In this document: positions 12,124-30,776 of the stretch, piece after piece | Layout of the letters: each line of letters starts with the position of its first letter | Position numbering within the stretch: position 1 is the first letter of the stretch | From: an uncultured bacterium | GTDB lineage: Bacteria > Oederibacteriota > Oederibacteriia > Oederibacteriales > Oederibacteriaceae | Direction: 5' to 3' | Assembly: GCA_965112635.1 (NCBI GenBank) | Contig: OZ218778.1 | Location: 192,001 to 256,000, forward strand | Length of the DNA stretch: 64,000 nt | Program-made: the position numbers and the translations under genes | The notes under the pieces: model-generated | The model's database searches: none | What the model was told of the DNA's origin: nothing | The model's input: the letters and a program-made list of their open reading frames with translations, nothing else

Positions 12124-15100
12124 ATGCACAGAATTAAAGCAAAACTTCTTTTGCTTCTATGGCTGATCCCAGGGTTTTTATTCGTAGCGGATTCCCAGGC
12201 TATCGATCAATTCGTGGTTTGGCAATGCGGACGATACACCGCGCCCAGCCGGGGCTGTATTTACCTCTATCCCTGCGTGAATAACACAGCGATAAACCTT
12301 TATGGTTCGCAGATTTCTGACACCAACATCACCACCCAGAACGCCTGGGTGGGAAATTTCGCGAACGCCGGGAACCTGGGAGGCCAGCCGTGGAATCCTG
12401 TCTGTAATTTCGGCCCTGACTATTATTTTTATGCCAACACTAATTTCCCTTTCCCTTGGGAGATCGATAACGTTCCTGATGGCACTAACAGTGACTATGG
12501 GGTCTGGCTGATGTCCCCCAACGGGTCAGGGGTCGGAAATGTTTTTTTTACCCACCTTAATTGCAATGGCGGTGACGCTTCGAGCGATCAGACCGGCGAC
12601 GCTGTCTCGGTTTACAATCCCAATGCTTTTGCCGTGCCCGTGGATTTTGCCCGCTGGAACGGCGCCAATTGGGTGACTGAAGTGACCGGGCAGGTTATCC
12701 AGGCCCAAAGTATTTGGATGTCCGGCGGCACCATAGGTTTTGGCGCCACAGGCACGAGACTCCCTGAGGCCGGCGATTTTAGGGTGGTGTGCTGCACCGC
12801 CAACGTGTGCGTTCACAAAGGTTTTATTCAAGCCGCCGACCATGATACTTTTTTTACCAACGCCATTGATGTGAATACTGGTTTAAAGATCGGCACGGAT
12901 ATGATCGGATTAGCTTCCAGCACTCCCCTGTCAGGCGTTGCGGCCCAATCCATCATGATTACCGCCGGCCCGGCTGGCGCCCACTACACGATTTTCCAGT
13001 ATGTGCCCAATGGCCCTGCTCCTGTGGGCAATTTCATGGTCGGCATGACCAATAGCGGCAATTGGATCCAAGCCACCAATCTTCCCGGCAACGCCGGGGT
13101 TCTGGGAGCCAACGGAGTCATTGCTCTGCCCGCCATCAACGGCAATAATAACGCAAACGCTGGCGAGGTGAATAACTTTTACCGAGTCGTGACCGATAAC
13201 CCCGTCCAGGTGGCCATCGGCACAAGCATTCTTTCCTCTTACGGCGCCTCGGATTGGGCCGATAGCTTTGATAATCTGGCCAATCCCCTTCCCATGGGCA
13301 ATAACTTTACCTTCTCTTACTACAATCTTTTTCCGCAATCTGCTGACGGTTCAGACCGTTATGTCACGGCTATTTTCCCGAATGCGGGAACCACGGCCAC
13401 CCTTTCCGGCCCGGCCGGCATCATCACGGGCGTATCCAACAATCCCCCCGGCACGATCGCTCCCATCGCGGCAACGAACAGCCGGGCCCAGACCAGTGCC
13501 GCGCCTTATGAGGCAAAAGTCTGGCAACTGAACAGCTTTACAGCCGGCCTGGTCACCCTCAATTTAAACGTGAACAGCGGCGGCCCCGTTTTCTTTAATA
13601 TTTCAGGGGATGTGAACGAAAACAGCGAAGAACGAACCGTGGAAGGCATGATGAACCCCGGGGGTCCCAATTTAACCGTCACATGCCCCAACACTCCGAC
13701 CGTCACCTCTACCCCCACGATCACCTGGACCCCGAACCCCTGTCCTGTCGAGCGCATCTATGCCGGTGCCACAAATTACACGGACACCTCCGGTAACGTA
13801 TGGCAGGCTTTTCAAAATTACTCCGCGGGTGGTTATGGGTTCGTGGGCGCAGGCGACCAACTCACCGGCTCAAATATTCTGGGAACCAACGATTCTGCGT
13901 TGTACCAAAATTCAGCCATCAGTTCTTCTTTTCAATGCATTTTTACACTGCCGGATGGGAACTATGAGCTCACCATGAAATTCGCCGAGTGCTGGCTTGG
14001 AGCCACGATCGGCACCAGAGTTTTCACGGTCACAGCGAACGGGACCCCGATCGCCACCAACCTTGATGTTTATGCCACCGTGGGGGACTTCTATGCCTAC
14101 GACGTGAATAGTGTTGTGACTGTTGCGGGCGGCCTGCTGACGCTTGATTTTACGGCCAGCTCCAATAACGCCATAGTCAGCGCCATACAAGTTCAATCGC
14201 TGTCCTGTTCCACTTCTACACCCACAGTAACCCCGACCGTTTCACCGACGGCTTCATTGACCTGTACCTCCACCAACTCGCCTACCTCCTCAGCGACACC
14301 GACGGCCTCACCAACGGCGACCATAACAAGCACGGCTACGGCTTCTCCCACTGCCTCTAATACGGGTACCGTAACTTCCACGGCCACCCCGACCGCCACG
14401 GACACCTGGATGGCCAGCCCGACCTTTTCCAATACCGCCACCGCAACAGCCACTCTGTCCCAGACCAGCACGCCCACTATATCCAACACGGCCAGCTCCA
14501 CCGCAACAACAACTTTTACATTTACCATAACCCTGACCAGCACTATTACCTGGACCCCATCCCTGACCTTAACTCCTTCCATAACCTGGACCCCGTCCAA
14601 AACTCCTACCCAGACTAATACGGCCACTGTGACCGCCACCAATACCCCTGTGATGACCAACCTGGAGCTCAAGGTCTACAATGAGGCCGGTGAAGTGGTC
14701 AAAACCTTCAGTAATGTCCTTGTCTTGGGTGGGTTTAGCGGTATCCAGCTTTCCTCAGGCAGCGGCTCTACCATCTTTGACCCCAACTCCGGCCTCTTTG
14801 ATATCGAGATCAAGAGCGCTGGCATCATCTACCACGTCCCCTGGGACGGCAAAAGCGACCTGGGCTACCTTGTGGACAGCGGGCAATATGTGCTCAAAGC
14901 CGATATCCCCGGCCTGCAAGGCAATACGGTCGTCATGCCCCTGACCGTGCTCAAGTCAGGAGACCTTTTGACCGTCAGTATCTACACCACCAGCGGAGAG
15001 TTGGTCAAACAGCTTTACCAGAGCTATTTCGTCCAGGGACAATTGGGAAGCATGAAGTTGACCAGTAATTTACTGCAGATAAGCAATCAACCCACAGGGA

Positions 15101-15606
15101 CAACCACGATCGGGATAAACATCTTTTCCTCCACAGGTCAGTTAATGGCAGATGGGCTAGGCTCCTTGAACCAAGCCCGCCTGACCTGGGACGGCACCAC
15201 GGCCTTGGGCAATTATGTGCAAAGCGGAGAGTATTTGATCAAAATAGATCAGACCTACAACCACCAGCACGATGTGCTGGTGCAAAGTGTGACCGTGTTA
15301 AGCTCCAATTTAAGCGGGTTTATGGACGCTTCGGTCTACCCCAACCCGTACCTCTCCACCCCAGACCACAAGGTATGGTTCAAGGTCGCTTTGCAGGACC
15401 AATCCAGCCTGACCGTGAGAATTTATGATGTGGTGGGAGAGCTGGTGAACACCCTCAGCTTGCCCGCAGCCGGGCCTGGCATTGCCACCCTGGGTTGGGA
15501 TGTCAATAATACTGCGGCCGGTCTTTATGTGGGAATTGTAGAAGCCGCTTCACAGGTCAGCGGTCAAACACAGAAAAAACCTTTGAAAATATCAGTTATA
15601 AAGTAG
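12124..15606 (+). CDS. Large secreted protein: unknown N-terminal region, malectin domain, Thr-rich stalk, type-A tail (FlgD-like Ig x2 plus T9SS-like CTD)
   Basis: Signal peptide. Malectin motifs at ~13750-14195 (DTSGNVWQA, LPDGNYELTMKFAE, RVFTV, LDVYATVG). Tail has WDGK...DSGQY, WDGT...SGEYLI, VYPNP...IYDVVGELV...GLY. Confidence 0.8.
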   Translation: MHRIKAKLLLLLWLIPGFLFVADSQAIDQFVVWQCGRYTAPSRGCIYLYPCVNNTAINLYGSQISDTNITTQNAWVGNFANAGNLGGQPWNPVCNFGPDYYFYANTNFPFPWEIDNVPDGTNSDYGVWLMSPNGSGVGNVFFTHLNCNGGDASSDQTGDAVSVYNPNAFAVPVDFARWNGANWVTEVTGQVIQAQSIWMSGGTIGFGATGTRLPEAGDFRVVCCTANVCVHKGFIQAADHDTFFTNAIDVNTGLKIGTDMIGLASSTPLSGVAAQSIMITAGPAGAHYTIFQYVPNGPAPVGNFMVGMTNSGNWIQATNLPGNAGVLGANGVIALPAINGNNNANAGEVNNFYRVVTDNPVQVAIGTSILSSYGASDWADSFDNLANPLPMGNNFTFSYYNLFPQSADGSDRYVTAIFPNAGTTATLSGPAGIITGVSNNPPGTIAPIAATNSRAQTSAAPYEAKVWQLNSFTAGLVTLNLNVNSGGPVFFNISGDVNENSEERTVEGMMNPGGPNLTVTCPNTPTVTSTPTITWTPNPCPVERIYAGATNYTDTSGNVWQAFQNYSAGGYGFVGAGDQLTGSNILGTNDSALYQNSAISSSFQCIFTLPDGNYELTMKFAECWLGATIGTRVFTVTANGTPIATNLDVYATVGDFYAYDVNSVVTVAGGLLTLDFTASSNNAIVSAIQVQSLSCSTSTPTVTPTVSPTASLTCTSTNSPTSSATPTASPTATITSTATASPTASNTGTVTSTATPTATDTWMASPTFSNTATATATLSQTSTPTISNTASSTATTTFTFTITLTSTITWTPSLTLTPSITWTPSKTPTQTNTATVTATNTPVMTNLELKVYNEAGEVVKTFSNVLVLGGFSGIQLSSGSGSTIFDPNSGLFDIEIKSAGIIYHVPWDGKSDLGYLVDSGQYVLKADIPGLQGNTVVMPLTVLKSGDLLTVSIYTTSGELVKQLYQSYFVQGQLGSMKLTSNLLQISNQPTGTTTIGINIFSSTGQLMADGLGSLNQARLTWDGTTALGNYVQSGEYLIKIDQTYNHQHDVLVQSVTVLSSNLSGFMDASVYPNPYLSTPDHKVWFKVALQDQSSLTVRIYDVVGELVNTLSLPAAGPGIATLGWDVNNTAAGLYVGIVEAASQVSGQTQKKPLKISVIK
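15050..15581 (+). repeat. ~530-bp near-perfect direct repeat (partner 36452-36983; diverged third copy ~30220-30750)
   Basis: By-eye alignment finds about 4 substitutions versus 36452-36983. Confidence 0.9.
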
Positions 15607-15647: not shown

Positions 15648-16541
15648 TTAAACCAAATGGACAGAACGTTCGCGGTAGGCTTTGGGAGAGAGCCCGTAAA
15701 CTTTGACGAATGTTCGGTGGAAATGGCTCTCATCCCCGAACCCCCAGTTCCCGGCCACCGCCTTGACCGGGACATCGGATTGCCGAAGTTCCGTGGCGGC
15801 GCCTTGGAGCCTGTACTGCAAACCGAACTGTCCAAAACTCATATTCATAAGACTATGGAACCGTTTGCAAAAGATCGACCTGGGCATGCGGCAGACTTTG
15901 GCCCCATCTTGCACATTGATCTTCCCGTGGCTATTGAACACCATTTCTATCGCAGGATTGATACGGTCAAGTTCATCATGGGCCTTCTCATTCTCATCGG
16001 ATGGCCTGCGCCAGTCCTTGAGGATGGTCAGAAGCAACTCGAGGCTCAGCAACCGCACCATGGCCATGGTGTGTCCGCTGGGAGGATTCACCCATGTCTT
16101 ATAAGTGGCTATCCGCCTCCCCAGATCGATGATTTCCTGTCTTTTTTGGTTATCCTTCACGCTCACCTGCGGGCGCTGGTGGGGCGGGACAAAAAAGGGG
16201 GCCAGCAGGTTCAAATGGGGCATCTCGGGAAAACGCGTTCTCGCGAGCAAGGGAGGATAGAAAAAAATCACCAGCCCGTCAGCCGGGGTTTCAATTTTTT
16301 TATTGCCATGAGGCTCCCACATGCTGGCCAGCCACACTTGTCCCGGCCCGACCGTGATCTCGCTATCTTCATAGAGTGCTTTTAACTTGCCGGAGAATAA
16401 CACCCCTATTTCCAATTCATAATGCCGGTCGTTCAAGGGTGCCACGGGATCAAAATTACTGGTAAAAAGTGGCTTCGCTTCAGATAGATTAAAGAACGAA
16501 GGATAGAATGTTTTGAAATTGGTCAGAATATTCTTGGCCAT
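15648..16541 (-). CDS. AraC family transcriptional regulator
   Basis: Cupin (HYELEIG...WEPHG) and HTH (WGFGDESHFHRTFVKVYGLSP). ATG 16541 has a GAGG RBS. Confidence 0.88.
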   Translation of the reverse strand: MAKNILTNFKTFYPSFFNLSEAKPLFTSNFDPVAPLNDRHYELEIGVLFSGKLKALYEDSEITVGPGQVWLASMWEPHGNKKIETPADGLVIFFYPPLLARTRFPEMPHLNLLAPFFVPPHQRPQVSVKDNQKRQEIIDLGRRIATYKTWVNPPSGHTMAMVRLLSLELLLTILKDWRRPSDENEKAHDELDRINPAIEMVFNSHGKINVQDGAKVCRMPRSIFCKRFHSLMNMSFGQFGLQYRLQGAATELRQSDVPVKAVAGNWGFGDESHFHRTFVKVYGLSPKAYRERSVHLV

Positions 16542-16727
16542 CTTTAATTTCCTCAATAATCCCCTTATTTCCTGCGTCTAAATTATAACCTACAGGACCG
16601 TTCTTCCAGAGACGAATCTGCAAAGATTGTTGTCCAGTTCTGCAACACTCTGATTGGTTATTTCCCAGAATAAGTTGTCTAATTAAATAAAGAAACGCTC
16701 AAAGCTAACCAAAAGGGCCGGCAGATC

Positions 16728-19700: not shown

Positions 19701-20558
19701 ACCACCAGTTACACCGGCACCACGACCTATACCGCCACGGTCACGGCATCGCCTAGCAGCACCAGCACCAGGACTTTCACCGGCACAGTCACAGTGACCC
19801 CTTCTCTGACCTTGACCCCTAGTTCTACAAATACCATCACCCAGACCCCGACTTCCAGCACAACCGCAACGGTCACTCAGACCAGTACGCAGACCCTCTC
19901 GCCCAGCCAGACTTTTACAGCTTCAGCCACTCCCACTCGGACTGATACGGCAACCCAAACCATGACTTCTTCTCAGACCCTGACCTCCAGCCAGACCTAT
20001 ACCATCACCCAGACTTTTACTTCTACCGCGACCCCCAGCCAAACCTATACTTTTACCCAGACCGCCACCTTTACTCAGACCTCGACTCCCAGTCAAACCT
20101 TGACTCCTTCTTACACCTCTACCCCTTCCAACACGGTAACCCCTAGCCTCACCCTGACCTCCAGCATGACTTTCACCAATTCACCCACTTTCACTCCTAC
20201 CGCCAGCGCTCCTCTCTGGATCGCTTCCCATGTCCCCTACCCCAACCCTGTGAGGGATAATAATGGAACAAAGCTCTACATCAAAATGACCGATGTACCT
20301 AACCGCATATCCGTCAGGATTTACACTACCTCGATGCGTTTGATTTGGGATATTTCAGTAGAAAACCCGGCACTACAGATCGAGTATAACAACGAGGTCG
20401 CCTATTTCACCTACACCCTACCCTACAGCTTGACGGACAACCACAACGTGCCTCTGGCTAATGGTTTGTATTACTATTCCATCACGGCCAATAATATGAC
20501 CAGCTCCACCAATAGCCGCCAGGCCAGGGTCATGGGTAAATTGGCTGTTTTGAAGTGA
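16728..20558 (+). CDS. Large secreted protein: alpha/beta-hydrolase-like domain, ConA/LamG-like module, Thr-rich stalk, type-B tail
   Basis: Signal peptide, nucleophile elbow AGVSMGGSG, candidate Asp (GKND) and His (NGH). Tail PTASAPLWIASHVPYPNP...LANGLYYY...GKLAVLK. Confidence 0.78.
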   Translation: MKKVIFASFLLCFSIFLTPITGWSQQVTGLAVHGPYNGQTILTWNEVNPPAIPASTTSVATVDTYVTNLATANPSYTYNIYHSASQINAVASLTPVATGVRQLTGWNDDNSLPNQAGVPLRFVVDEGGTGNLVPQTPVANGTGVYAYNPATAGPGYYAITVSVNGVENTTITLGQNSLTNPVTETVGRGDPILQCTATEINNPNNFIAQDTTYYYVRWEYPDNCSLFSTPMNYALRVPLGTTFPAPLGINLHCWGANLDNPCYFPPNAGAAGSTPPHLSMLVSSDECPYDWWTGYYDKAWTGMNGGGGETFLPGGSSSWATSGVVKDYSEQRMVSIYDWIAANWDNGSKVDLTRGFIAGVSMGGSGTAMLMIRYPGRFAWCYSSVGVHIPLLSPVFEGSYAGVYGDPTWNVLYQSLTIVPTIRAFDYFDDTQYLASHPTLQTGYMCVANGKNDSGIGWNQAWQYVKAMQAAKMPFIFYWTQNGHQTRACGPYPSAGNNMAIDVQNNQSIPAFENCSIDDAIGDGVEDGTGAGLNGGTHGYATGAINGYLYWNPATIVDTAGSWQMDIGLVSAAHGLTWAASCTVDITPRRLQSFAVSPGQCFNWTNTDLNTSTVIQSGSATADTNGFITLPAVLIKNQLQWQNRINIVPSGTCATKTNTPTETNTPTAGPSQTSTATPTITLTATQTATASITGTPTPTYTAGPSQTGTATGTSTYTATATSACVQFQVACKSSEVPSGNTNGQPVNPAVGPHGTVKISGAGSITFDPFEPGGSPTDGFFCGVGGVTNQSGYWNWSGAQIGTIFSPTGGDVIFYWKSYASMAQRNTDNKTGWSFGVTDDGTRTLWRIEVSPAGGAYNTITWQANSPSSGQYFDTTYTVNAGEIAKFRLSWTATTQSLYINDILIQSGATTAYTPSWGASSQFNIGASAGDNGFSGWKASKDTIADLQVNATCAGNTNTPTVTATLTGTASPTASPTLTYTTGPSQTATNTMTTSYTGTTTYTATVTASPSSTSTRTFTGTVTVTPSLTLTPSSTNTITQTPTSSTTATVTQTSTQTLSPSQTFTASATPTRTDTATQTMTSSQTLTSSQTYTITQTFTSTATPSQTYTFTQTATFTQTSTPSQTLTPSYTSTPSNTVTPSLTLTSSMTFTNSPTFTPTASAPLWIASHVPYPNPVRDNNGTKLYIKMTDVPNRISVRIYTTSMRLIWDISVENPALQIEYNNEVAYFTYTLPYSLTDNHNVPLANGLYYYSITANNMTSSTNSRQARVMGKLAVLK

Positions 20559-20587
20559 TGAACTTTAAACTCAACTAGACAAACCGT

Positions 20588-20771
20588 ACAACACCTGGTG
20601 ACAAAGTCGCGGCCAAGCAAAAATTGGCCAGAGAGCCGAACAGGGGGTTATAAAACAAAATAAAGAACCAGCGATAAAGCCGTCCTGAGGTGTAAACCCG
20701 GGTGGGAGAGCTAACCGTCCTACAGAAAGCTTTGGGGATACAGGGGCATACCGAAAGGTTCTTTTTTTGTT
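20588..20771 (+). ncRNA. Candidate structured cis-regulatory leader RNA, copy 1 (riboswitch-like)
   Basis: Near-identical to 23294-23480 with pairing-preserving changes. Ends in GGTTC followed by T7, just before the ATG at 20780. Confidence 0.65.
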
Positions 20772-20779
20772 GAAGAAAT

Positions 20780-23163
20780 ATGATAAAAAGTAAAAACAGA
20801 ATATTAGTACTGGTCCTGGTTAGTTTGTTAGAGTTGGGCCTGAGCAAGCCAAGCCTGGCCAAGGTGCTGCTCCAGCAAAGCGATTTCACTTACTTAGGGT
20901 CGTTCAAATGCCCTGATTCGATCGGGTGCTCCAGCGACTCCTCGTTCAGCTATGGAGGGCTGACCCACCGCTACTTGAATGGAAATCTTCAGTTCTTTCT
21001 TTTGGGTCACACTGGCGCTTGCACGCCTTGTTATGAGGTAAATTATCCGGGCGTGTCCGCCGCCTCCCCCCCACCGCTGCTGTGGTCAGATGCTGGGGAG
21101 ATATCTATCACGGACATAAACTCCTCTACGACCAGAACCAGCCCGGCAATCCCACTCCTTATGATTCATGCTCCAACCCCCAGCCAAGCCAAACCGTCGT
21201 TGTCTATGGGTTGTTTTGGGATCCCACCCTGCAGAGGCTTTATTGGTCTTACGGCAACAACTACAACACCACCTGGCCTAGTGACCCGTGTATGGGCTAC
21301 TCCACGCTTAATGATGCTAACGGCACCTCCCAGGGGTTTGGACCCTGGGCGACCGGAGATACGCAGAAGATGTGCCAGGGGGGATTCACCCGTATTCCCT
21401 CGTGGTTCGCCTCTCAATACACAGGAGGCAAGAGTTTGGGGGTAGGATTCGGGGGTTATTTTTCCGTCTGTTCCAGCGCCAGCCTGGGCCCTTATCTGTG
21501 TGCTGTCGCAGACCCCACCACGGAGCCCCCTGTCACCGTGCCCAATCCAAGCCCGGCTCCCCTGCCCCATCTTGATTTGGTGGGATACCCCCACAACCCC
21601 ACCCCCTACACGCAACCGATGCCCTGCCAACGTGACATTGATTATTCCGGCGGGTTTGACGGCTGGCTTCCGCAGGGAGGAGTTGGATATTGGCAATGGA
21701 CGGATACGCTCTGGCAGAGTGGAATATGGGTGGACACCACCAACAAGACGGGGATGCTCTACTTTCCAACGATGGGTGACGGTTTTGTACATTACTGCAA
21801 TGCCGGCATAAACTCCGAACGCGGTTCACACTACTGTTTTGTCTACGATCCCGCTGACCTGGCCACTGTGGCCCAGGGCGCCAACATGTGGTCCATCCAG
21901 CCGAAGGACACCTGGAAAATGCACTATCCTGATGTGAACTATTCCACCATCAATCTTACGACGACCTGCTTTGCGGGAACAGGGTGTCCGGGCCAGTGCT
22001 GCCCCTCTACTTTTACCACTCCAGCCATACCGGATCCCCAAGGTTTTTTGACGTGTTGGGGTGCCGGTCAAAGCCCGTCCCATGTAGTGGCAGGAGTTGA
22101 TTTTGATTCGGCCACCAACACCCTGTACCTGGAGATTTTGGACGTGGATAAAATCGGATGCTGTTCTTTTCCGCCCCGCATCTATGCCTATCAGGTCTCT
22201 GATACCGTGGGAACACCGACAGCGACAGCCACCCAGACTTATTCTGCCACTTCCACGCAAACACCTGTTCCCAGTCTGACCGCCACGACCACAGCCAGCC
22301 TGACCTATACACGGACCTCCAGCCAGACGCCTTCAGCCAGTCCGACCTTTATGCCCTCTTTGACTTCCACACAAACCCCGTCTCCAAGCCTAACTTACAC
22401 CAGGACCTATTCTTTTACCCAGTCCCCTACCTTTTCCCAGACCTTGACTGCCAGCCAGACCTCTTCTCCAAGTTTAACTTCCACCAGGACCTATACTTTT
22501 ACTCAGTCTCCTACTTTTTCCCAGACCTTGACCTCTAGCCAAACCTCCTCTCCAAGTTTAACCTCCACTGGGTCCTATACTTTTACCCCGTCCCCCACTT
22601 TTTCCCAGACCTTGACTCCGAGCCAAACCTCCACCTCCAGCCTGACCGCCACGAAATCTTATACCTCTACCCAGACAGCCACCCCTACCGTGACCCCGAC
22701 TTCCAGCAACACCTACACCCCCTCCCTCACCACGACCCCTTCTTTTACGATGACCCCGAGCATGACCCTGACCTCCAGCCAAACCTTCACCAGCTCGCCC
22801 ACCTGCTCGCCCACGGCCAGCGAATCCCTTTGGATCGCCAGCCATGCACCCTATCCCAACCCCCTCCGCCAAGGTAATCAAGTCTCGGTTTATATGCTCA
22901 TGACCGATGTGCCCGATCGGCTGTCCCTCAAGGTCTACACCGTTTCCATGAGGCTCATCCGCTACATCACGATGGGGGATCCCCGGCATTCTCCAGACCC
23001 TTTAATTGTCTATGACGGCAATGTGGCCCGTTATGCCTACACGGTCGGCATCGACCTGGCCAAACCTAACCTTGTGGCAAACGGCCTTTATTACTATTCG
23101 ATCCAGGCAACTAAAGGGGATAGACAGGCTAAGGTTTTTGGGAAGTTTGTGATCATTAAATAA
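20780..23163 (+). CDS. Secreted protein (Cys/Trp-rich, beta-propeller-like N-domain, Thr-rich stalk, type-B tail), frameshifted at a C7 run
   Basis: ORFs 20780..21445 and 21082..23163 join into one protein colinear with paralog 23491..26229 if C7 at 21066-21072 is read as C8 (YPGVSAASPPTAAVVRCWGDIYHG). Confidence 0.78.
22381..22632 (+). repeat. Three tandem 84-bp (28-aa) coding repeats in the Thr/Ser stalk
   Basis: TCTCCAAG units start at 22381, 22465 and 22549. Peptide SPSLTxTxxYxFTxSPTFSQTLTxSQTS. Confidence 0.85.
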
Positions 23164-23196
23164 CCCGCCTTCTTGTGTGCTATAATCCCAAAAATA

Positions 23197-23224
23197 GGAA
23201 CTTTTACTGTTAATAATTGTCTAA
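23197..23224 (+). promoter_or_regulatory. ECF (RpoE-like) sigma promoter
   Basis: GGAACT-N16-GTCTAA, upstream of leader RNA copy 2. Confidence 0.6.
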
Positions 23225-23293
23225 TTTTCAGCCTTTTAGGGAGGTAGAAAAAGTTTTGCCGTAATTATTCGTCTAACGCAGTGAGTATACTGC

Positions 23294-23480
23294 ACAACAC
23301 CTGGTGACAAAGTCGTGGCCAAGTTCCACTTGGCCAGAGAGCCGAACAGGGGGTTATAAGACAAAATTAAGAACAAGCGAAAAGCCGGTCCGTGGTGTAA
23401 ACCCGGGTGGGAGAGCTAACCGTCCTTTCCCTGTCAGGGGAAAGGATACAGGAGCATACCGAAAGGTTCTTTTTTTGTTT
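23294..23480 (+). ncRNA. Candidate structured cis-regulatory leader RNA, copy 2
   Basis: Homologous to 20588-20771. Variable hairpins GGCCAAG-TTCCA-CTTGGCC and CCTTTCCCT-GTC-AGGGGAAAGG keep pairing. Confidence 0.65.
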
Positions 23481-23490
23481 TTAGAACAAC

Positions 23491-26229
23491 ATGAGCAAGC
23501 AAAGAGTCAATTCGGTCCTGCTCCTCCTAGGCCTGATGGTATTTAGTTTAACCTGCCCATCCCTGGCCAAAGTCATGTACCAGCCCGGAGATTTCACCTA
23601 CCTGGGGTCGTTCAGGATACCAGACTCTCTCGGCTGTACGGACGGATGGCCTTCGTCGTTCAGTTACGGAGGCCTTGCCCACCGCTATGTAAACGGCAAT
23701 CTCCAGTTCTTTCTTTTGGGCCACACCTACGGACCTCCGGATTGCTATGAAATAAATTATCCGGGTGTGTCCCTGGCCGCCCCTCCTATGTCTACCGTTT
23801 TAACCTGCTGGGGAGACATCTACCACGGACATAAGCTCCAGTACAGCGGGCCTGCCGGTAATCCGACCCCAGTGGATACCGTTCCCGGAGGATGCGTTTC
23901 TTACGGCCTGATGTGGGATCCAACCTCGCAAAGGCTTTATTGGTCCTACGGAAATAGTTACAACACGACCTACCAAAACGACCCCAATATGGGCTACTCG
24001 ACCTTCGACGATGTGCACGGCACTTCAGCAGGGTTCGGGCCCTGGGCCACAGGCGACGGGTGTAAGTGCGTCCAGGGAGGTTTTACCCAGATCCCGTCTT
24101 GGTTTGCCACCGCCTACACCGGCGGTAAAACTCTGGGGGTGGGGTTTGGGGGCTATTTTTCCATCGTGGACGTCGGGTCCACTAGCCTGGGCCCGGCGTT
24201 GTGCGCCATCGCGCCTCCCACCGCCGAGCAGCCCGTGACCGGGGCCGATCCCACTCCGCCGCTCCTGCCCTACGTGGACCTGCTCGGTTACCCTTACACC
24301 GGCAATTGCCCGCCGCCCACAGCGGCCTATGACCGCTGCCACCGGGACACCAATTACACCGATGAACTCGACTGCTGGCTGCCCTTTAACGGCACGGGCT
24401 ACTGGACCTGGCTGGACACCCTGTACCAATCCGGGATCTGGTTGGATACGCCCAACAAAAGCGGACTACTCTATTTCACCACTCTGGGGGACGGCGGGAT
24501 GTGCTACGAATGCGCCCTGACCGGCGGTGGGGCTGAACCAGGCTGCGAAAAAGGATCGCATTGGTGGCTTGAATACGACCCTAACGACCTGGCCACGGTT
24601 GCCCAGGGCGCCCACGAATGGTCCGTCCAGCCTAAAATGGCCTGGCAGGTGCAGTATCCTGACGTGCCCTACCCTGGCGGTTATTTAGCCGGATGGGGTG
24701 GAACCGCCCCCTACCAGCCAGCCGGGATCGATTTTGATCCGACCACGAGCACTTTGTATATAGAGGTCTTGGGCGTGGATAGGATAGGTTGTTGTTCCTA
24801 TCCTCCCCGCATCTATGCTTACGCGGTTTCTGATGTGGTGAATCCAACGGCGACGCCGACGCAGACAGCCACTCCGACCCAGACTTTGACGCCCTGGATC
24901 GCTGGTCCAAACTGCAGCACTCCTACCCTGGTGAACCAGGATGTGGGCCTTCCCTACCCGCAGGGAAGCTCCAGTTTGAGCAGCGGCACCTATACGGTCA
25001 ACGGCGGAGGAGAAATGGGGGGCAATCTTGACTCGTTCCAGTTCGATTATATCTATGTGCTGGGGGATGGAACCATGACCGTGCGGGTGGCGAGCCAGCA
25101 GAACACCAACGCCAATGCCATCGCCGGGCTCATGATACGCAACGACCTCTCGCCTAACTCTATGAACATGACCATAGGGCTCCAGCCCGGCGGCACCGGC
25201 GCCACGATGATGTACCGGTCGTCCTATGGAGGAACCGAGGCCGTGGGAGGCAACACGGCGAGCCCGGCGGCCCCGTATTGGGTCAGGCTGGTGAGAAGCG
25301 GCAATAGTTTCAGCGCCTATATATCCCCGGACGGCAACACCTGGACACAGGAAGGTTCCACCGTGACCCTAGGCATCAACACTTACGCCTATTGGGGACT
25401 GGTCGTGAACAGCGCTGTCGTCGCCGGTGTCAATAGTGTGCTGAACACTTCCACCTTTGACAACCTGTGCATCCCCTGGGGACCCTCCACACCGACCTTT
25501 ACGATGACGGCGACGCCAATGTTTACAGCGACCAGCACTTGGACCCCGACCCCCTCCAAAACGGCGACAGCCTCAGCGACTTTCTCGGCCACAGCAAGCT
25601 CTACCCAAACCCCCACCGCTACCCAGACCTTCACGGCCAGCCCGACAGCCACTCGTACGGCTACGGCGACCTATTCTCCGACTCCCAGCCAGACCTTTAC
25701 CTCCACCTTGACGAGCACCAGGACCAATACATCTACCCAGACCGCCACTTTTACCATGACCCTGACCTTCAGCAATACTTTCACGCCTTCCTGCACTATG
25801 ACCCCGTCTTACTCACTGACTCCCAGCCTTACCTTGACCTCCAGCCAGACCTTTACCAGCTCGCCCACCTGTTCACCCACAGCCAGCGAGCCTTTGTGGA
25901 TACCCTACCACGTGGCCTTTCCTAATCCTGACCGCTCTAGCAATCAGGTCACGATCTATATGCTCATGACCGATGTGCCCGACCGGTTGTCCGTGAAGAT
26001 CTATACGGTGGCCATGAGGTTGATCCGCAGCGCGTCCGCGATGGACCTCGATCAATCCTCCGTCCTCCAAGTTGTCTATGATGGCAGCGTCGCCCGCTAT
26101 TCCTATGCGGTCAGCATGGACCTTACCAAACCCGACATCGTGGCAGACGGCCTGTATTATTACTCGATCCAGGCTGATAAAGGCGGCAAGCGGGCCAGGG
26201 TCATTGGAAAACTCGTCATTATGAGGTAA
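23491..26229 (+). CDS. Secreted protein: beta-propeller-like N-domain, ConA-like (DUF1349-type) module, Thr-rich stalk, type-B tail
   Basis: Signal peptide ending SLA. DFTYLGSFRIP...; DSFQF...AGLMIR...APYWVRLVRSGNSFSAYISPDGNTW; tail PTASEPLWI...FPNP...GLYYY. Confidence 0.82.
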   Translation: MSKQRVNSVLLLLGLMVFSLTCPSLAKVMYQPGDFTYLGSFRIPDSLGCTDGWPSSFSYGGLAHRYVNGNLQFFLLGHTYGPPDCYEINYPGVSLAAPPMSTVLTCWGDIYHGHKLQYSGPAGNPTPVDTVPGGCVSYGLMWDPTSQRLYWSYGNSYNTTYQNDPNMGYSTFDDVHGTSAGFGPWATGDGCKCVQGGFTQIPSWFATAYTGGKTLGVGFGGYFSIVDVGSTSLGPALCAIAPPTAEQPVTGADPTPPLLPYVDLLGYPYTGNCPPPTAAYDRCHRDTNYTDELDCWLPFNGTGYWTWLDTLYQSGIWLDTPNKSGLLYFTTLGDGGMCYECALTGGGAEPGCEKGSHWWLEYDPNDLATVAQGAHEWSVQPKMAWQVQYPDVPYPGGYLAGWGGTAPYQPAGIDFDPTTSTLYIEVLGVDRIGCCSYPPRIYAYAVSDVVNPTATPTQTATPTQTLTPWIAGPNCSTPTLVNQDVGLPYPQGSSSLSSGTYTVNGGGEMGGNLDSFQFDYIYVLGDGTMTVRVASQQNTNANAIAGLMIRNDLSPNSMNMTIGLQPGGTGATMMYRSSYGGTEAVGGNTASPAAPYWVRLVRSGNSFSAYISPDGNTWTQEGSTVTLGINTYAYWGLVVNSAVVAGVNSVLNTSTFDNLCIPWGPSTPTFTMTATPMFTATSTWTPTPSKTATASATFSATASSTQTPTATQTFTASPTATRTATATYSPTPSQTFTSTLTSTRTNTSTQTATFTMTLTFSNTFTPSCTMTPSYSLTPSLTLTSSQTFTSSPTCSPTASEPLWIPYHVAFPNPDRSSNQVTIYMLMTDVPDRLSVKIYTVAMRLIRSASAMDLDQSSVLQVVYDGSVARYSYAVSMDLTKPDIVADGLYYYSIQADKGGKRARVIGKLVIMR

Positions 26230-26407: not shown

Positions 26408-29400
26408 ATGAAAACAAAATATTTTACATACAGCAGCCTGATCGTCTATTTATTCCTTCTTCTGATGTTCCCTACCCCGTTACAGCCAGCAGTATGCAGC
26501 AATAATCCCGGCAAGGACGGCTCGGGAAACATTGGGGGAGTGGTCAACACCTACTACCCTGCCACGGCCTCAGTGGGCGCCGGAGCCGGAGCCATCCCCG
26601 TGGGTCCTATTAATGCCTGGGGCAGTCAGACCCCCATTTCAGCCGGAGACCTGCTCTTGGTCATCCAGATGCAGGATGCCACCATAGACTATACCGATAC
26701 GGATTCCTACGGGGACGGCACAGCTGGAGCTCCGGCCTCAGGTCAAACCGGCGTGGGCAACACCGGTACATTCGAATACGTGCTGGCCTCAGGTCCGGTA
26801 GCCGGCGGCGTTGTTCCCCTGAGTACTCCCCTGCAGAATGCCTACCACGAGGCTGCGGCCACAGCCACGCTGGGACAAAAGACCTATCAAGTGGTGAGGG
26901 TGCCCCAATACGCCAATCCTTCGTTGACCTCAAACTTGACCGCGGCCTACTGGAACGGCAGCAGCGGCGGTGTCCTGGCCTTTGACGTCTGCGGCACCAT
27001 GAACCTGAACAATGCCACGGTCAGTGTGGACGGTACTGGTTTCCGCGGAGGTGGCGGCTTTTTAGGCACAGGCGGAGGTGACGTTGCTGGTTATGTGACG
27101 GTGGTCGACCCCACGGGCGCAGATACCAGCGCCGAGAAAGGCGAGGGCATCGCGGGAACACCTCGGTTGGTCGCCAATGCCTATGGAGGGACCATTATTG
27201 ACACCGGAGTGGAGGGATACCCTGGAGGGAGTGCGCGCAGGGGAGCGCCCGCTAACGCGGGCGGGGGCGGCAACCAATGGCAGTCGGGAGGAGGAGGAGG
27301 CTCCAACGCTGGTGCAGGCGGCACTGGTGGAGATACCATTTCTTTCATCGACGATCCGTACGGAGGTTATGGGGGAGCGGTCTTTCCCTCTTCCAGCACC
27401 AGCCTGATCATGGGAGGCGGAGGCGGAGCTGGAGCCAGTAATAACGGCGGGAATGAAGTGAATTTCTGCAGCGGAGGAGCCGGAGGCGGGATCGTGATGA
27501 TCCGCACGGGTTCGGTTGCCGGAACAGGCACGATCTCGGCTAATGGAACTAAGGGAGTGGATGGGGGTGCCTGGGATGAAAACAACGCAGGAAACAATAA
27601 TGAATCCGCCTCAGGAGGAAGCGGCGGTGGAGGAAGCGTCCTGATCAGCTCCGCGGGAGCCCTGGGTGGATTGACCTGTGAACGCCAACGGAGGAGCTGG
27701 TGGGGACAATCTGCCCCGGTCCAATCCTCCTAATTACCTCCACGGTCCGGGAGGCGGGGGTGGCGGAGGAGCGGTGTTTCTTTCCGGCGCTCCAGCTGCA
27801 GCCACGGTTAATGGAGGAGCTCCTGGAACAACAGGTGGGGTAAATTACAATGCCACAACGGGGTCCGCAGGGCAAATAAGCACTTCCCTAGCCTCCAACA
27901 CCTGCTCAGGAGCCTGCGGCCCGGCATCTACCCCGTCGCTTACACCTACCCTGGAACCGGTTGCCTGCACGACCCCGGGCAGTAGCACTGCCACGCTTTC
28001 CGGGGTCATTAATACCTATTATCCGGGGGCCAACGGAACCGTGACTCAGGGATCTATGGCTATCCCGGTGGGAGCCATGCGGGCCGGCGGCGGGCCCGCC
28101 ATTGCGGCCGGAGACCTGCTCTTGGTCATCCAAATGCAGGCGGCTACTATAAATTCAAGCAATACGGCCTTTTATGGGGATGGGACAGGCAACGCCTCGG
28201 GGTCCACCAGCCTGCAAAACGCCGGAGTTTTTGAATACGCGGTGACCACAGGGCCGGTTGTGGGTGGTGTCGTTTCACTCATGGGTCCTTTGATGAACTC
28301 CTATACCAACGCGGCAGCCACCGGCGTGCAAGGCCAGGAGACCTATCAGGTGGTGAGGGTTCCGCAGTATTTTAACGCCACCTTGACCGGAGGTTTGACT
28401 GCTCTGCCCTGGGACGGTTCCAGCGGAGGCATCCTGGACTTTAATGTCTCGGGCACACTGAATTTGAACGGAGCCACGGTAAACATAGATGCTATGGGTT
28501 TCCGCGGTGGCGGCGGCAGGCAGCTCGGGGGCGGGGCAGGTGGATTGCTGACGGACTTTGTGAACCTTTCCACCAATAATTTCTATGGTCAAAAAGGAGA
28601 AGGCATCGCGGGCACTCCTAGGTTTGTATATGATTCCGTGACCATGGCTGAGGTGGATACTGGAGTGGAAGGATACCCCAATGGCAGTACTTGCCGGGGA
28701 GCACCGGGTAATGGCGGCGGGGGTGGCAGTGATGACTATCCGATTGGCAACCTGGACAACGCTGGTGGCGGTGGAGGAGGCAATGGCGGCACAGGAGGCA
28801 AGGGAGGAAATACCTGGAATCAGGATTTACCTATAGGAGGATACGGAGGAGTGGCGTTCCCAGCCTCAGCCAACAGACTTATCCTGGGAGGAGGCGGAGG
28901 AGCCGGAGATGATAATAATAGTGGAAATCCTAGCAGCAGCGGTGGATCAGGAGGAGGATTAGTCATCATCAAGGCCTGCACCTGTATCAGTACCGGGACC
29001 ATTACAGCCAATGGCGGATTTGGGGTAACCCCAGGCCTTGACGCAGGCGGTGGCGGTGGTGCGGGAGGAAGCGTGGTGTTCTTGACAGGAGGAGGAATAG
29101 GCGGACTGACCTTGCACGCCGACGGCGCCAATGGAACAGATGCTTCTTTGTCTTGGGCGAATCCTCCACCCTGGCATGGGCCCGGAGGTGGAGGTGGTGG
29201 CGGTGTAATATTTGTTTCCGGCGCCCCGGCTGCAGCTACGGCCAATGGAGGTATGAACGGATCAACAGGTATTCCATTATCTCTTTATAGTTCTAAACCG
29301 GGGAATAACGGCATTATTTCCACTACTCTTCCCTATCCTGAGCAAGGATGTATTTGCGGTATTTCTCCAACATTCACATCCACTGCTACCATCACGTCAA

Positions 29401-30776
29401 CCAGTACAAGCACAGCGACGGCGACACCTACCGCAACCGTTACGGTCAGTCCTACGTTGACCTCCACAAACACAACCAGTGCTACGGCCACCATCACCCT
29501 AACCAGTACGGCCACAGAGACTGCAACCCCTACGGCCACGGCGACGACTTTGTACTCCTCGACCAGTACGAATACAACTACTGAAACGGCAACGCCTACT
29601 GGCACATCGACACCTTTACCCACCTCGACCACTACAAACACCACCACCGAGACAGCGACGGCTACGACTACATCCACCATCACCCTAACTCAAACCAACA
29701 CCGTAACATTTTCTGTGACCTTAACCTCCTCTCTGACCTGGACCTCTTCCCAGACCTGGACTCCCTCCAAGACTCCCACGCAGACCTGCACGGCTACCGT
29801 GACCGCTACCAACACTCCAGTCATGACCAACCTGGAATTAAAGGTCTACAACGAGGCGGGAGAGGTGGTCAGGACCCTTCCCAACCTGCTGGTCTTGGGA
29901 GGCTTCAGCGGTATCCAGCTCACTCCGGGAAGCGGCTCCCCTGCTTTTGACCCCAGCACCGGTATTTTTGACATAGAGGTCCTCAGCAGCGGCATCGTGT
30001 ATCACATCCCCTGGGACGGCAAGAGCGATCTGGGCTATCTTGTGGACAGCGGGCAATACATTCTCAAGGCTGATATCCCAGGCCAGCCAGGCAATACGGT
30101 CACCATGGGCTTGACCGTGCTCAAGGCAGGAGACTATTTGACCGTCAGCGTCTATACCCCCAGCGGTGAACTGGTCAAACAGCTGTACAGCAGCTACCTG
30201 GTGCAAGGGCAATTGGGAGGCATGGATTTGACCAGTAAATTACTGCAGATAAGTAATCAGACCATAGGAACAGTTAAAATTGGGATAGACGTTATATCCT
30301 CTACCGGAACCTTGATAGCGGACAACCTAGGACCTTTGAACCAGGCCCGCCTGGTTTGGGACGGCACCACGGCTTTGGGCAATTATGTACAGAGCGGAGA
30401 GTATTTGATCAAGATAGAGCAGGTCTACAACCATCAGCATGACGTGGTGGTGCAAAGCGTAACCGTGTTAAGCTCCGATTTGAACGGGTTTATGGACGCT
30501 TCGGTCTATCCCAACCCGTACCTCTCCACCCCTGACCACAAGGTATGGTTCAAGGTCACTTTGCAGGACCAATCCAACCTGACCGTGAGAATTTACAATG
30601 TGGTGGGAGAGCTGGTGAACACCCTCAGCTTGCCTGCGGCCGGGCCTGGAGTAGCTTCCGTAGGTTGGGACATGACCTCAGTAGCCAGCGGTCTTTATGT
30701 GGGGATCGTGGAGGCCGACTCCCAGGTCAGCGGACAAACGCAGAAAAAACCTTTGAAAATTAGTGTCATCAAATAA
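26408..30776 (+). CDS. Large secreted Gly-rich adhesin-like protein (two Gly-rich modules, Thr stalk, type-A tail), frameshifted near 27677
   Basis: ORFs 26378..27733 and 27678..30776 join if one base in TTGACCTGTGAAC is removed, giving GLTVNANGG, which matches GLTLHADG/GLTVHADG in the paralogous modules. Confidence 0.78.

Follow-up and report, generated by a model that had tools for sequence, protein, structure and literature searches.

The 64,000-nucleotide (nt) window of DNA analysed here, positions 192,001 to 256,000 of contig OZ218778.1 from an uncultured bacterium (assembly GCA_965112635.1), contains at 20588-20771 on its forward strand a non-coding leader of ~185 nt which recurs at 23294-23480. 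Each copy stands just before one of two paralogous genes, the first at 20780-23163 and the second with the start codon of its 912-amino-acid product at 23491. Two RNA structures are packed into the leader: a bulged hairpin at its 5′ end (domain 1, 20594-20644) and, after an A-rich linker (20645-20661) delimited from the leader sequence and the comparison of the two copies, a three-helix RNA (domain 2, 20662-20768). An earlier note on this DNA proposed a new tandem riboswitch here, with one minimal and one full aptamer resembling the core of the class I riboswitches for cyclic di-guanosine monophosphate (c-di-GMP). Our own reading is a narrower one, namely that domain 2 is probably, though well short of certainly, a variant of the c-di-GMP-I aptamer, with c-di-GMP as its ligand and OFF logic, and that domain 1 is not an aptamer.

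How well is the leader kept between its two copies? Over its whole length 163 of 196 aligned columns (83%) are identical, with 90% for domain 1 and 81% for the A-rich linker. The coding DNA downstream is 67% identical over its first ~300 nt and 61% in its later part, the encoded paralogs share 55-64% of their residues, and the 100 nt upstream of the two leaders are 48% identical. With 83% set against 61-67%, the leader outdoes the coding DNA in conservation, as the earlier note had observed; the sequence features that it listed for the two domains are likewise all to be found in their places. The differences between the leader copies lie in hairpin loops and in the upper arm of helix P3 of domain 2, which has been rebuilt and yet still pairs. 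A minus-strand open reading frame (ORF) of 104 amino acids, 20575-20889, lies over the first leader; it overlaps covarying RNA and was treated as mechanical.

In domain 2, AAGAAC (20663-20668) pairs with GTTCTT (20758-20763) and encloses, in turn, GCGATAAAGCC, a hairpin capped by GTAA, GGGAGAGCTA, a variable hairpin and CATACCGAA; the outer strands run from AAAGAACC (20662-20669) to GGTTCTTT (20757-20764), and seven T occupy 20762-20768. Read as RNA, all on the forward strand and with the Vc2 c-di-GMP-I aptamer as reference for numbering, the 5′ strand of P1 (20662-20673) consists of P1b, AAAGAACC, an internal-loop AG and the CG of P1a (20672-20673). The junction J1/2, AUAAAG (20674-20679), ends in G20679, the equivalent of G20. 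P2 (20680-20706) begins with the pairs C20680-G20706 and C20681-G20705, has a conserved G20682/G20704 mismatch at the place of the canonical A23..C44 internal loop, and is capped by a GUAA tetraloop (20692-20695). J2/3, A-G-A (20707-20709), supplies the equivalents of A47, A48 and A49, position 48 being G. P3 (20709-20749) has a lower stem AGCU/GGC(A)U, a 5′ bulge AA, the pairs CC/GG, a variable upper hairpin (20717-20739) and a 3′ bulge ACA (20740-20742). J3/1, U-A-C, lies with the P1a 3′ strand in 20749-20753, C20751 being the equivalent of C92 and the CG of P1a standing at 20752-20753; the 3′ strand of P1b, GGUUCUUU, together with U7 (20762-20768) makes up 20757-20768, the proposed built-in intrinsic terminator. 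The copy of domain 2 in the second leader (forward strand, 23369-23476) has P1 AAGAAC/GUUCUU, a GUAA loop, J2/3 AGA, J3/1 UAC and U7 at 23470-23476, and it is downstream of this copy that the start codon of the 912-amino-acid paralog follows.

Copies and covariation of domain 2

BLAST of the leader against its own genome (2.88 Mb, one contig) picked out pieces of domain 2 in five more places, with the same core and different stems. A first covariance model (R1), built from seven copies, gave ten full-length matches in that genome, with E from 2.8e-25 to 2.3e-9, so that the repeat exceeds chance. These are numbered c1 to c10, the two within the window being c1 and c2, and c2 was the top match at 117.9 bits. 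When 100 other genomes, related at the level of phylum only, were searched with R1, matches came from a single genus (g21, of a different family, f11), in which three of four genomes hold four copies. A second model (R2), built from all 14 sequences and run across 99 genomes of the phylum under Infernal's stricter filters, returned the same 14 matches, in the own genome and in three of the four genomes of g21.

Is the RNA present farther afield? Strict pattern scans of large genome and metagenome contig collections gave 0 and 0 loci, and looser ones gave 7 and 15, of which the model confirmed nine of 22 at E<=0.01; by their same scores eight of the nine are known variant sequences, and the ninth (L070, 19.3 bits) is marginal. 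The other 13 loci, from Bathyarchaeota, Ardenticatenaceae, Eoetvoesiella and TARA contigs among others, were unmatched by the model and were set aside. No further lineage came out of these scans, whose patterns miss P3 arms of >50 nt and five-A 5′ ends. Also discarded was GACAAAGTCG as a general motif, as its 8 genome occurrences, against about 5.5 expected, are no enrichment.

The consensus has the order P1 - AAAAG - P2 - A-R-A - P3 - (A)UAC - P1′. Within it P2 reads CC-G-stem-GNRA-stem-U-G-GG, and P3 runs through GCU, an AN bulge, CC, the variable hairpin, the ACA bulge, GG and then RGY, with an upper hairpin whose length differs from copy to copy, between about 15 and about 105 nt. Conservation of the RNA is highest in its unpaired junctions (AAAAG, GGGARAGCUA, GCAUACCG), ahead of the helices, and these junctions coincide with ligand-contacting positions.

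The three-helix junction of P1, P2 and P3 is backed by covariation. In the alignment of the 14 sequences, of which 13 rows are distinct, standard pairs make up 91.9% of cells, and both sides have changed in 18 of 28 pairs. Against these counts stands that the alignment had been fitted to the model, that a single genome supplied ten of the sequences as paralogs and that two rows are identical, so that the changes are not independent. By helix, two-sided changes affect six of the seven pairs of outer P1 (P1b), eight of ten in P2 and four of nine in P3, where pairs vary as G-C/G-U/A-U, C-G/U-A and U-G/U-A. None of 500 column shuffles reached the observed pairing values, and when the partners were slid by 1-3 columns pairing fell to 35-51%. 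RNAalifold, which owes nothing to the model, recovered from a plain MAFFT alignment only P2, with compensatory changes, and some spurious short pairs, P1 and P3 having been set by hand; single-sequence minimum free energy (MFE) folds of both leaders form P1, P2 and upper P3.

Kinship with c-di-GMP-I and the pocket positions

With Rfam at its gathering cut-offs the whole window gave 0 matches, and searches at E<=10, one of 3.3 kb and one of 206 nt, brought up chance-level ones only (TB10Cs4H3, MIMT1_1, HYMAI, and EGFOA at 13 bits). As the earlier note remarked, the usual signatures of c-di-GMP-I, GGCAAAC and GCAAA, are absent from domain 2, which lies below every Rfam cut-off. Genome-wide, the top match of the c-di-GMP-I family, RF01051, is c10 at 26.1 bits (E 0.006, cut-off 35), with c1-c8 absent from the list even at E<=10, and the top match of RF03167 is c7 at 17.9 bits (cut-off 59) with all 80 model positions aligned. 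In the opposite direction, ten of 101 genomes of the phylum have canonical c-di-GMP-I RNAs above the RF01051 cut-off (35-69 bits), and when R2 was run with filters off on RF01051-positive loci, eight of 12 were matched at E<0.01 and ten of 12 at E<1, the best at 44.1 bits, with the same coordinates. The canonical relatives share 5′ CCG-AAAAG with the variant, and one of the 12 canonical loci (L042) has the 3′ end GGGC-AUAC-CG-AU exactly as in the variant. By the weak full-length Rfam matches of sister copies together with the reciprocal matches of the variant model, the domain 2 family is homologous to c-di-GMP-I, and what had been noted as a resemblance is a kinship. Judged by these comparisons it appears to be a lineage-specific variant of c-di-GMP-I (GEMM-I), neither a member by the Rfam criterion nor a new class, and to that extent the novelty claimed for it is reduced to that of a variant.

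The likeness to c-di-GMP-I (RF01051; Vc2, PDB 3MXH as cited in PMC11705072) embraces the three-helix junction, the CG/CG at the top of P1, a J1/2 with G20 at its end, the GNRA-capped P2, the C22-G45 pair, J2/3 A-R-A, the lower stem of P3, GCY/GGC, with its 5′ A bulge, J3/1 U-A/G-C with C92, and the position in 5′ leaders of genes for surface or secreted proteins. The differences are that the P2 of the variant is without the AMA/GNC internal loop and has instead just one G/G mismatch, or a GA/G(G) loop in the case of c9, c10 and the copies from f11; that it lacks C44 and the bulged G83 and has an ACA bulge on the 3′ strand of P3; and that its P1 3′ strand leads straight into a U-run. RF03167, c-di-GMP-I-GGC, is a variant of this fold that Rfam already lists, and c7 aligns to it end to end. 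Its consensus, however, has G after P2 (GCGA.A), the first nucleotide of J2/3, where the present variant has A in 14/14, and the score of c7 is far from its cut-off. The GGC of that name presumably stands for positions 20/47/92. In the genomes of genus g21, canonical c-di-GMP-I RNA (50-56 bits with RF01051; L043-L045) and the variant (L028-L031) are at different loci, so that the two forms coexist and are not simple orthologous replacements of each other.

Which of the nucleotides that matter for binding have been kept? The positions of the class were mapped through the alignment to the canonical loci and a column table of the 14 sequences. One structural source gives as highly conserved G20, C22, A23, A25, G32, A35, G42, C44, G45, A47-A49, C59, G79, G83, G90 and C92, with G20, C92, A47 and A48 as key for recognition, A49 docking on the C22-G45 pair, and the C44-G83 pair keeping P2 and P3 parallel (PMC3764141). 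For Vc2, a second has one guanine of c-di-GMP pairing with C92, an A48-U90 Hoogsteen pair and two long-range contacts (PMC11705072). In the variant the equivalent of G20 is G and that of C92 is C in 14/14, the latter followed by a CG that pairs with 5′ CG or UG, and the equivalents of A47 and A49 are also present in 14/14. The second P2 pair, equivalent to C22-G45, is C-G in 12 of 14 (11 of the 13 distinct rows) and U-G in two, the P2 loop is GNRA in every copy (GUAA, GCGA, GUGA or GAAA), and J3/1 is UAC in the ten own copies and UGC in the four relative ones. The internal loop of P2 is replaced, with G at the A23 position in 14/14, G at the C44 position and the neighbours paired, and in the canonical-loci alignment the variant's P2 columns there are flagged as not pairing in the canonical RNAs. 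In 12 of 14 copies the first P2 pair has been flipped to C-G. In the ten own copies the 3′ bulge of P3 is ACA, ACACA or AACAA, and so free of G. Two copies, c9 and c10, have the canonical G-C, C-G base of P2 plus a small GA/G loop, and the set therefore grades towards the canonical form. It is possible that a swapped G-C contact replaces C44-G83, and the conserved C-G pairs just above the ACA bulge could be the tetraloop receptor of P3 (C59, G79).

A number of points have to be put on the other side of the scale. In the 206-nt search c1 itself gave no c-di-GMP-I alignment even at E<=10, and no Rfam family reaches its cut-off for the variant. Missing from the variant are A23, A25, G42, C44 and G83. 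At position 48 the copies divide evenly, seven of the 14 having A and the other seven, c1 and c2 among them, having G, and A48 is one of the nucleotides named as key to recognition (PMC3764141). Moreover, an engineered C44G/G83C swap in Vc2 failed to restore binding (PMC11705072), and so the loss of the C44-G83 contact could matter.

The c-di-GMP-contacting nucleotides that are kept nevertheless favour c-di-GMP over a changed cyclic dinucleotide, and on these positions c-di-GMP is the most likely ligand. The host genome has ten GGDEF domain matches at nine loci, three of HD_5 and 17 of PilZ, by which c-di-GMP is plausible as a ligand for it. There is no match in it to the EAL domain, so that breakdown of c-di-GMP would rest on HD-GYP-type enzymes.

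Could the same fold now serve another ligand, whether 3′3′-cGAMP, cyclic di-AMP, pGpG or some other guanine-containing nucleotide? The rebuilt base of P2 with its flipped first pair, the loss of C44-G83 and G48 would reshape the pocket, A48 being not only a key nucleotide (PMC3764141) but also the Hoogsteen partner of U90 (PMC11705072). There is precedent too in that c-AMP-GMP (GEMM-Ib) riboswitches derive from c-di-GMP-I by a small change in the pocket that brought a new ligand, and single-nucleotide pocket changes shift c-di-GMP-I aptamers towards c-AMP-GMP (PMC9481103). However, c9 and c10, close paralogs that both have STAS genes, differ in whether they carry A or G at 48, so that the choice looks neutral, and the genome is rich in GGDEF and PilZ. 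The pocket position to which we take that switch to be linked, with G20 changed to A in the cGAMP type, is G in 14/14 copies of the variant, and C92 is kept. A different ligand is therefore improbable in our view. Held to be a long shot of much the same order is a combination in which a rebuilt clamp (a swapped G-C contact or A-minor contacts of the ACA bulge) and G48 would alter selectivity or kinetics, the whole folded aptamer would directly be the terminator, as a one-piece riboswitch that needs no expression platform of its own, and domain 1 would be a possible P3-less mini-aptamer.

Proposed expression platform and the genes downstream

Each of the ten own copies is followed by an ORF in the same orientation, and a cis-regulatory role of the variant is supported. 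Boxes of the -10-like sequence TATAAT are found upstream of c3, c4 and c6. In nine of the 14 copies, c1-c5 and all four of the other family, U6-U9 directly follows the 3′ strand of P1; in the window the closing stem of domain 2 abuts a U-run, as the earlier note saw. There is no U-run in c6 to c10. The ATG of c7 and the GTG of c8 are in the P1 3′ strand, and AAGGGG is in the 3′ strand of P3.

On the c-di-GMP reading, the closed aptamer of those nine copies would itself be the terminator hairpin, its P1 3′ strand leading into the U-run, and in c7 and c8 P1 and P3 would hold the start codon and the Shine-Dalgarno-like AAGGGG. Ligand binding would in both layouts close P1 and so turn the gene off, and from this putative expression platform a c-di-GMP OFF switch is most likely. 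A simple terminator scan of 20300-23700 gave 0 sites because its loop limit is 8 nt and the whole aptamer is the loop here.

There are difficulties for this proposal. MFE folds close P1 without ligand, so that termination might be constitutive, and in folds of truncated leaders of c1 and c2 there is no conserved antiterminator; kinetic control is therefore an assumption. Alternative pairings of the leader differ between c1 and c2, are not significant (z -2.55 to +0.55) and were not adopted. A GGUUCU upstream of c3 that could pair with the P1 5′ strand is absent from c4.

The same difficulties, that P1 and the U-run form in ligand-free folds and that no conserved alternative pairing was seen, lend themselves to the view that the RNA senses nothing, being a structured intrinsic terminator or attenuator, or else a stable 5′ leader, or one of a family of small RNAs derived from c-di-GMP-I with binding lost; c1 begins 30 nt past the stop codon of the upstream gene and could end that transcript too. 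Yet a mere hairpin does not account for junction nucleotides that are the most conserved and are the ligand-contacting ones, which is the pattern of an aptamer, nor for c6 to c10 without U-run or for c7 and c8, where the aptamer overlaps the start codon, nor for the persistence of the motif in two distant families. We regard it as rather unlikely that sensing has been lost, and keep to an OFF switch responsive to c-di-GMP as the preferred reading.

The genes so placed are of several kinds. Those of c1 and c2 are the paralogous secreted proteins of unknown family, adjoining genes with type IX C-terminal sorting domains. The gene of c3 encodes a 940-amino-acid beta-helix/CBM11 protein, that of c4 a related 425-amino-acid protein and that of c5 an unknown one of 591 amino acids. 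With c6 there is an ORF of >2,059 amino acids without a Pfam match (genome 2652001-2658178, minus strand; L035). A 295-amino-acid membrane protein goes with c7, and with c8 a type IX secretion protein of the PorV/PorQ family (157 bits, cut-off 90; genome 1816833-1817768, plus strand; L037). Small genes for STAS anti-sigma-antagonist-like proteins go with c9 and c10 (genome 991994-992926 and 1605422-1606261, plus strand; L039 and L038).

Standard annotation has no c-di-GMP riboswitch in this genome, yet there are ten copies of the variant, each a predicted sensor. A single unrecognised RNA type would link c-di-GMP, the probable ligand, to secreted unknowns, a PorV/PorQ-family protein, beta-helix/CBM11, a protein of >2,000 residues and STAS regulators, and it opens c-di-GMP control of surface and secretion genes to testing in the candidate phylum of the host, which to our knowledge is represented only by metagenome-assembled genomes. 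In the literature searched none was found that joins a c-di-GMP riboswitch with type IX secretion, and none on C44 and G83 with c-di-GMP that reports natural variants without that pair, the study defining the GGC/UAU variants being outside that search; novelty was also judged without the Rfam full alignment of c-di-GMP-I. The variant is a natural experiment on the c-di-GMP-I fold, its pocket kept and its P2 internal loop and C44-G83 clamp replaced, and as a natural solution set against the failed Vc2 swap (PMC11705072) it would show which contexts tolerate that change. The layout of P1 plus U-run, common to two distant families, would, if it is confirmed, make a very compact expression platform. 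The variant sequences could also extend the Rfam model.

Domain 1 and the wider setting

In domain 1, CCTG (20594-20597) pairs with CAGG (20641-20644) and encloses GTGACAAAGTC, a GGCCAA..TTGGCC hairpin and AGAGAGCCGAA, as taken from the sequence and MFE folds; the second copy is at 23300-23350 on the same strand (sequence, two-copy alignment and MFE fold). As RNA it runs through GUGACAAAG, a stem UC-G-CGGCCAAG/UUGGCCA-GA whose 7-nt loop is non-GNRA, and after it GAGC and CGAA, and it reads as domain 2 minus P3 and most of J3/1. Could it be a minimal two-helix aptamer for a cyclic dinucleotide that works with domain 2 as a true tandem sensor? Its elements, P1, a J1/2 with G as the last base, a stem like P2, GAGAG and C-CGAA, follow the order of domain 2; between its two copies the stem is kept while the loop has changed at five of six positions; and tandem arrangements are common in c-di-GMP-I, with 347 doublets and 12 triplets reported (PMC9481103). 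The likeness to these is of two GEMM-like units in series in one leader, but here the first unit is P3-less, does not score as an aptamer, and there is a single terminator-like element. The variant model, aligned with the whole of P3 deleted, scores domain 1 at 4.4 bits (E 0.59 in 131 nt), and domain 1 has neither the GNRA loop nor the A47-A49 junction. It is confined to c1 and c2, recently duplicated leaders, and two sequences cannot show covariation. The leader of c3 (genome 2723145-2723260, minus strand; L021) is like those of c1 and c2 on both sides, with CCTGG joined directly to CAGGG, and so the 42-nt interior of domain 1 is an indel between paralogous leaders. A working tandem is accordingly very improbable, and that part of the earlier proposal is not upheld. 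Domain 1 is probably a functional hairpin at the transcript 5′ end or the remnant of a tandem unit, and would be a P3-less derivative rather than an independent aptamer of the c-di-GMP-I class.

Least credible of all is that these are ordinary c-di-GMP-I RNAs, with nothing structurally new, that were missed through the threshold or seed bias of Rfam: c9 and c10 do have the canonical P2 base, and c10 reaches 26.1 of the 35 bits, but canonical RNAs of the phylum score 35-69 bits where c1-c8 go unlisted, the P2 internal loop and the G83 bulge, highly conserved according to PMC3764141, are replaced in 14/14, and genomes of g21 hold both forms at different loci.

On the plus strand at genome 414286-414319 (L006) the leader's first 34 nt (ACACC-ACCTGGTGACAAAGTCGC) have a 34-nt match, at 85%, before another signal-peptide ORF, with the rest of domain 1 missing; apart from what this match says of the distribution of domain 1, it could be the sign of a transcript 5′ end held in common or of a promoter-proximal element. 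In the case of c6 the first listed ATG is inside the aptamer. The leaders of c9 and c10 extend for ~120-130 nt past the aptamer, with conserved blocks CUGUUUCC and CCAAUUAGA, and c10 is followed by two consecutive STAS genes.

The first gene downstream in the window (20780-23163, plus strand), for a secreted protein with a Thr/Ser/Pro-rich linker, is split over two overlapping frames, 20780-21445 and 21082-23163, while its paralog, 23491-26229, is a single ORF; the join is near paralog residue 98-103, and the comparison points to a frameshift near 21075-21090, either a real pseudogene or an assembly error. Pfam with both frame pieces and NCBIfam with the piece 21082-23163 named no family for this gene. 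The two genes belong to a same-strand run of genes for large secreted proteins at 12124-33138. Within it, C-terminal sorting domains (FlgD_ig / Por_Secre_tail) are present in 12124-15606 and in 27678-30776, the former with Malectin as well, and a gene for an AraC-family regulator (15648-16556) is on the strand opposite to the run.

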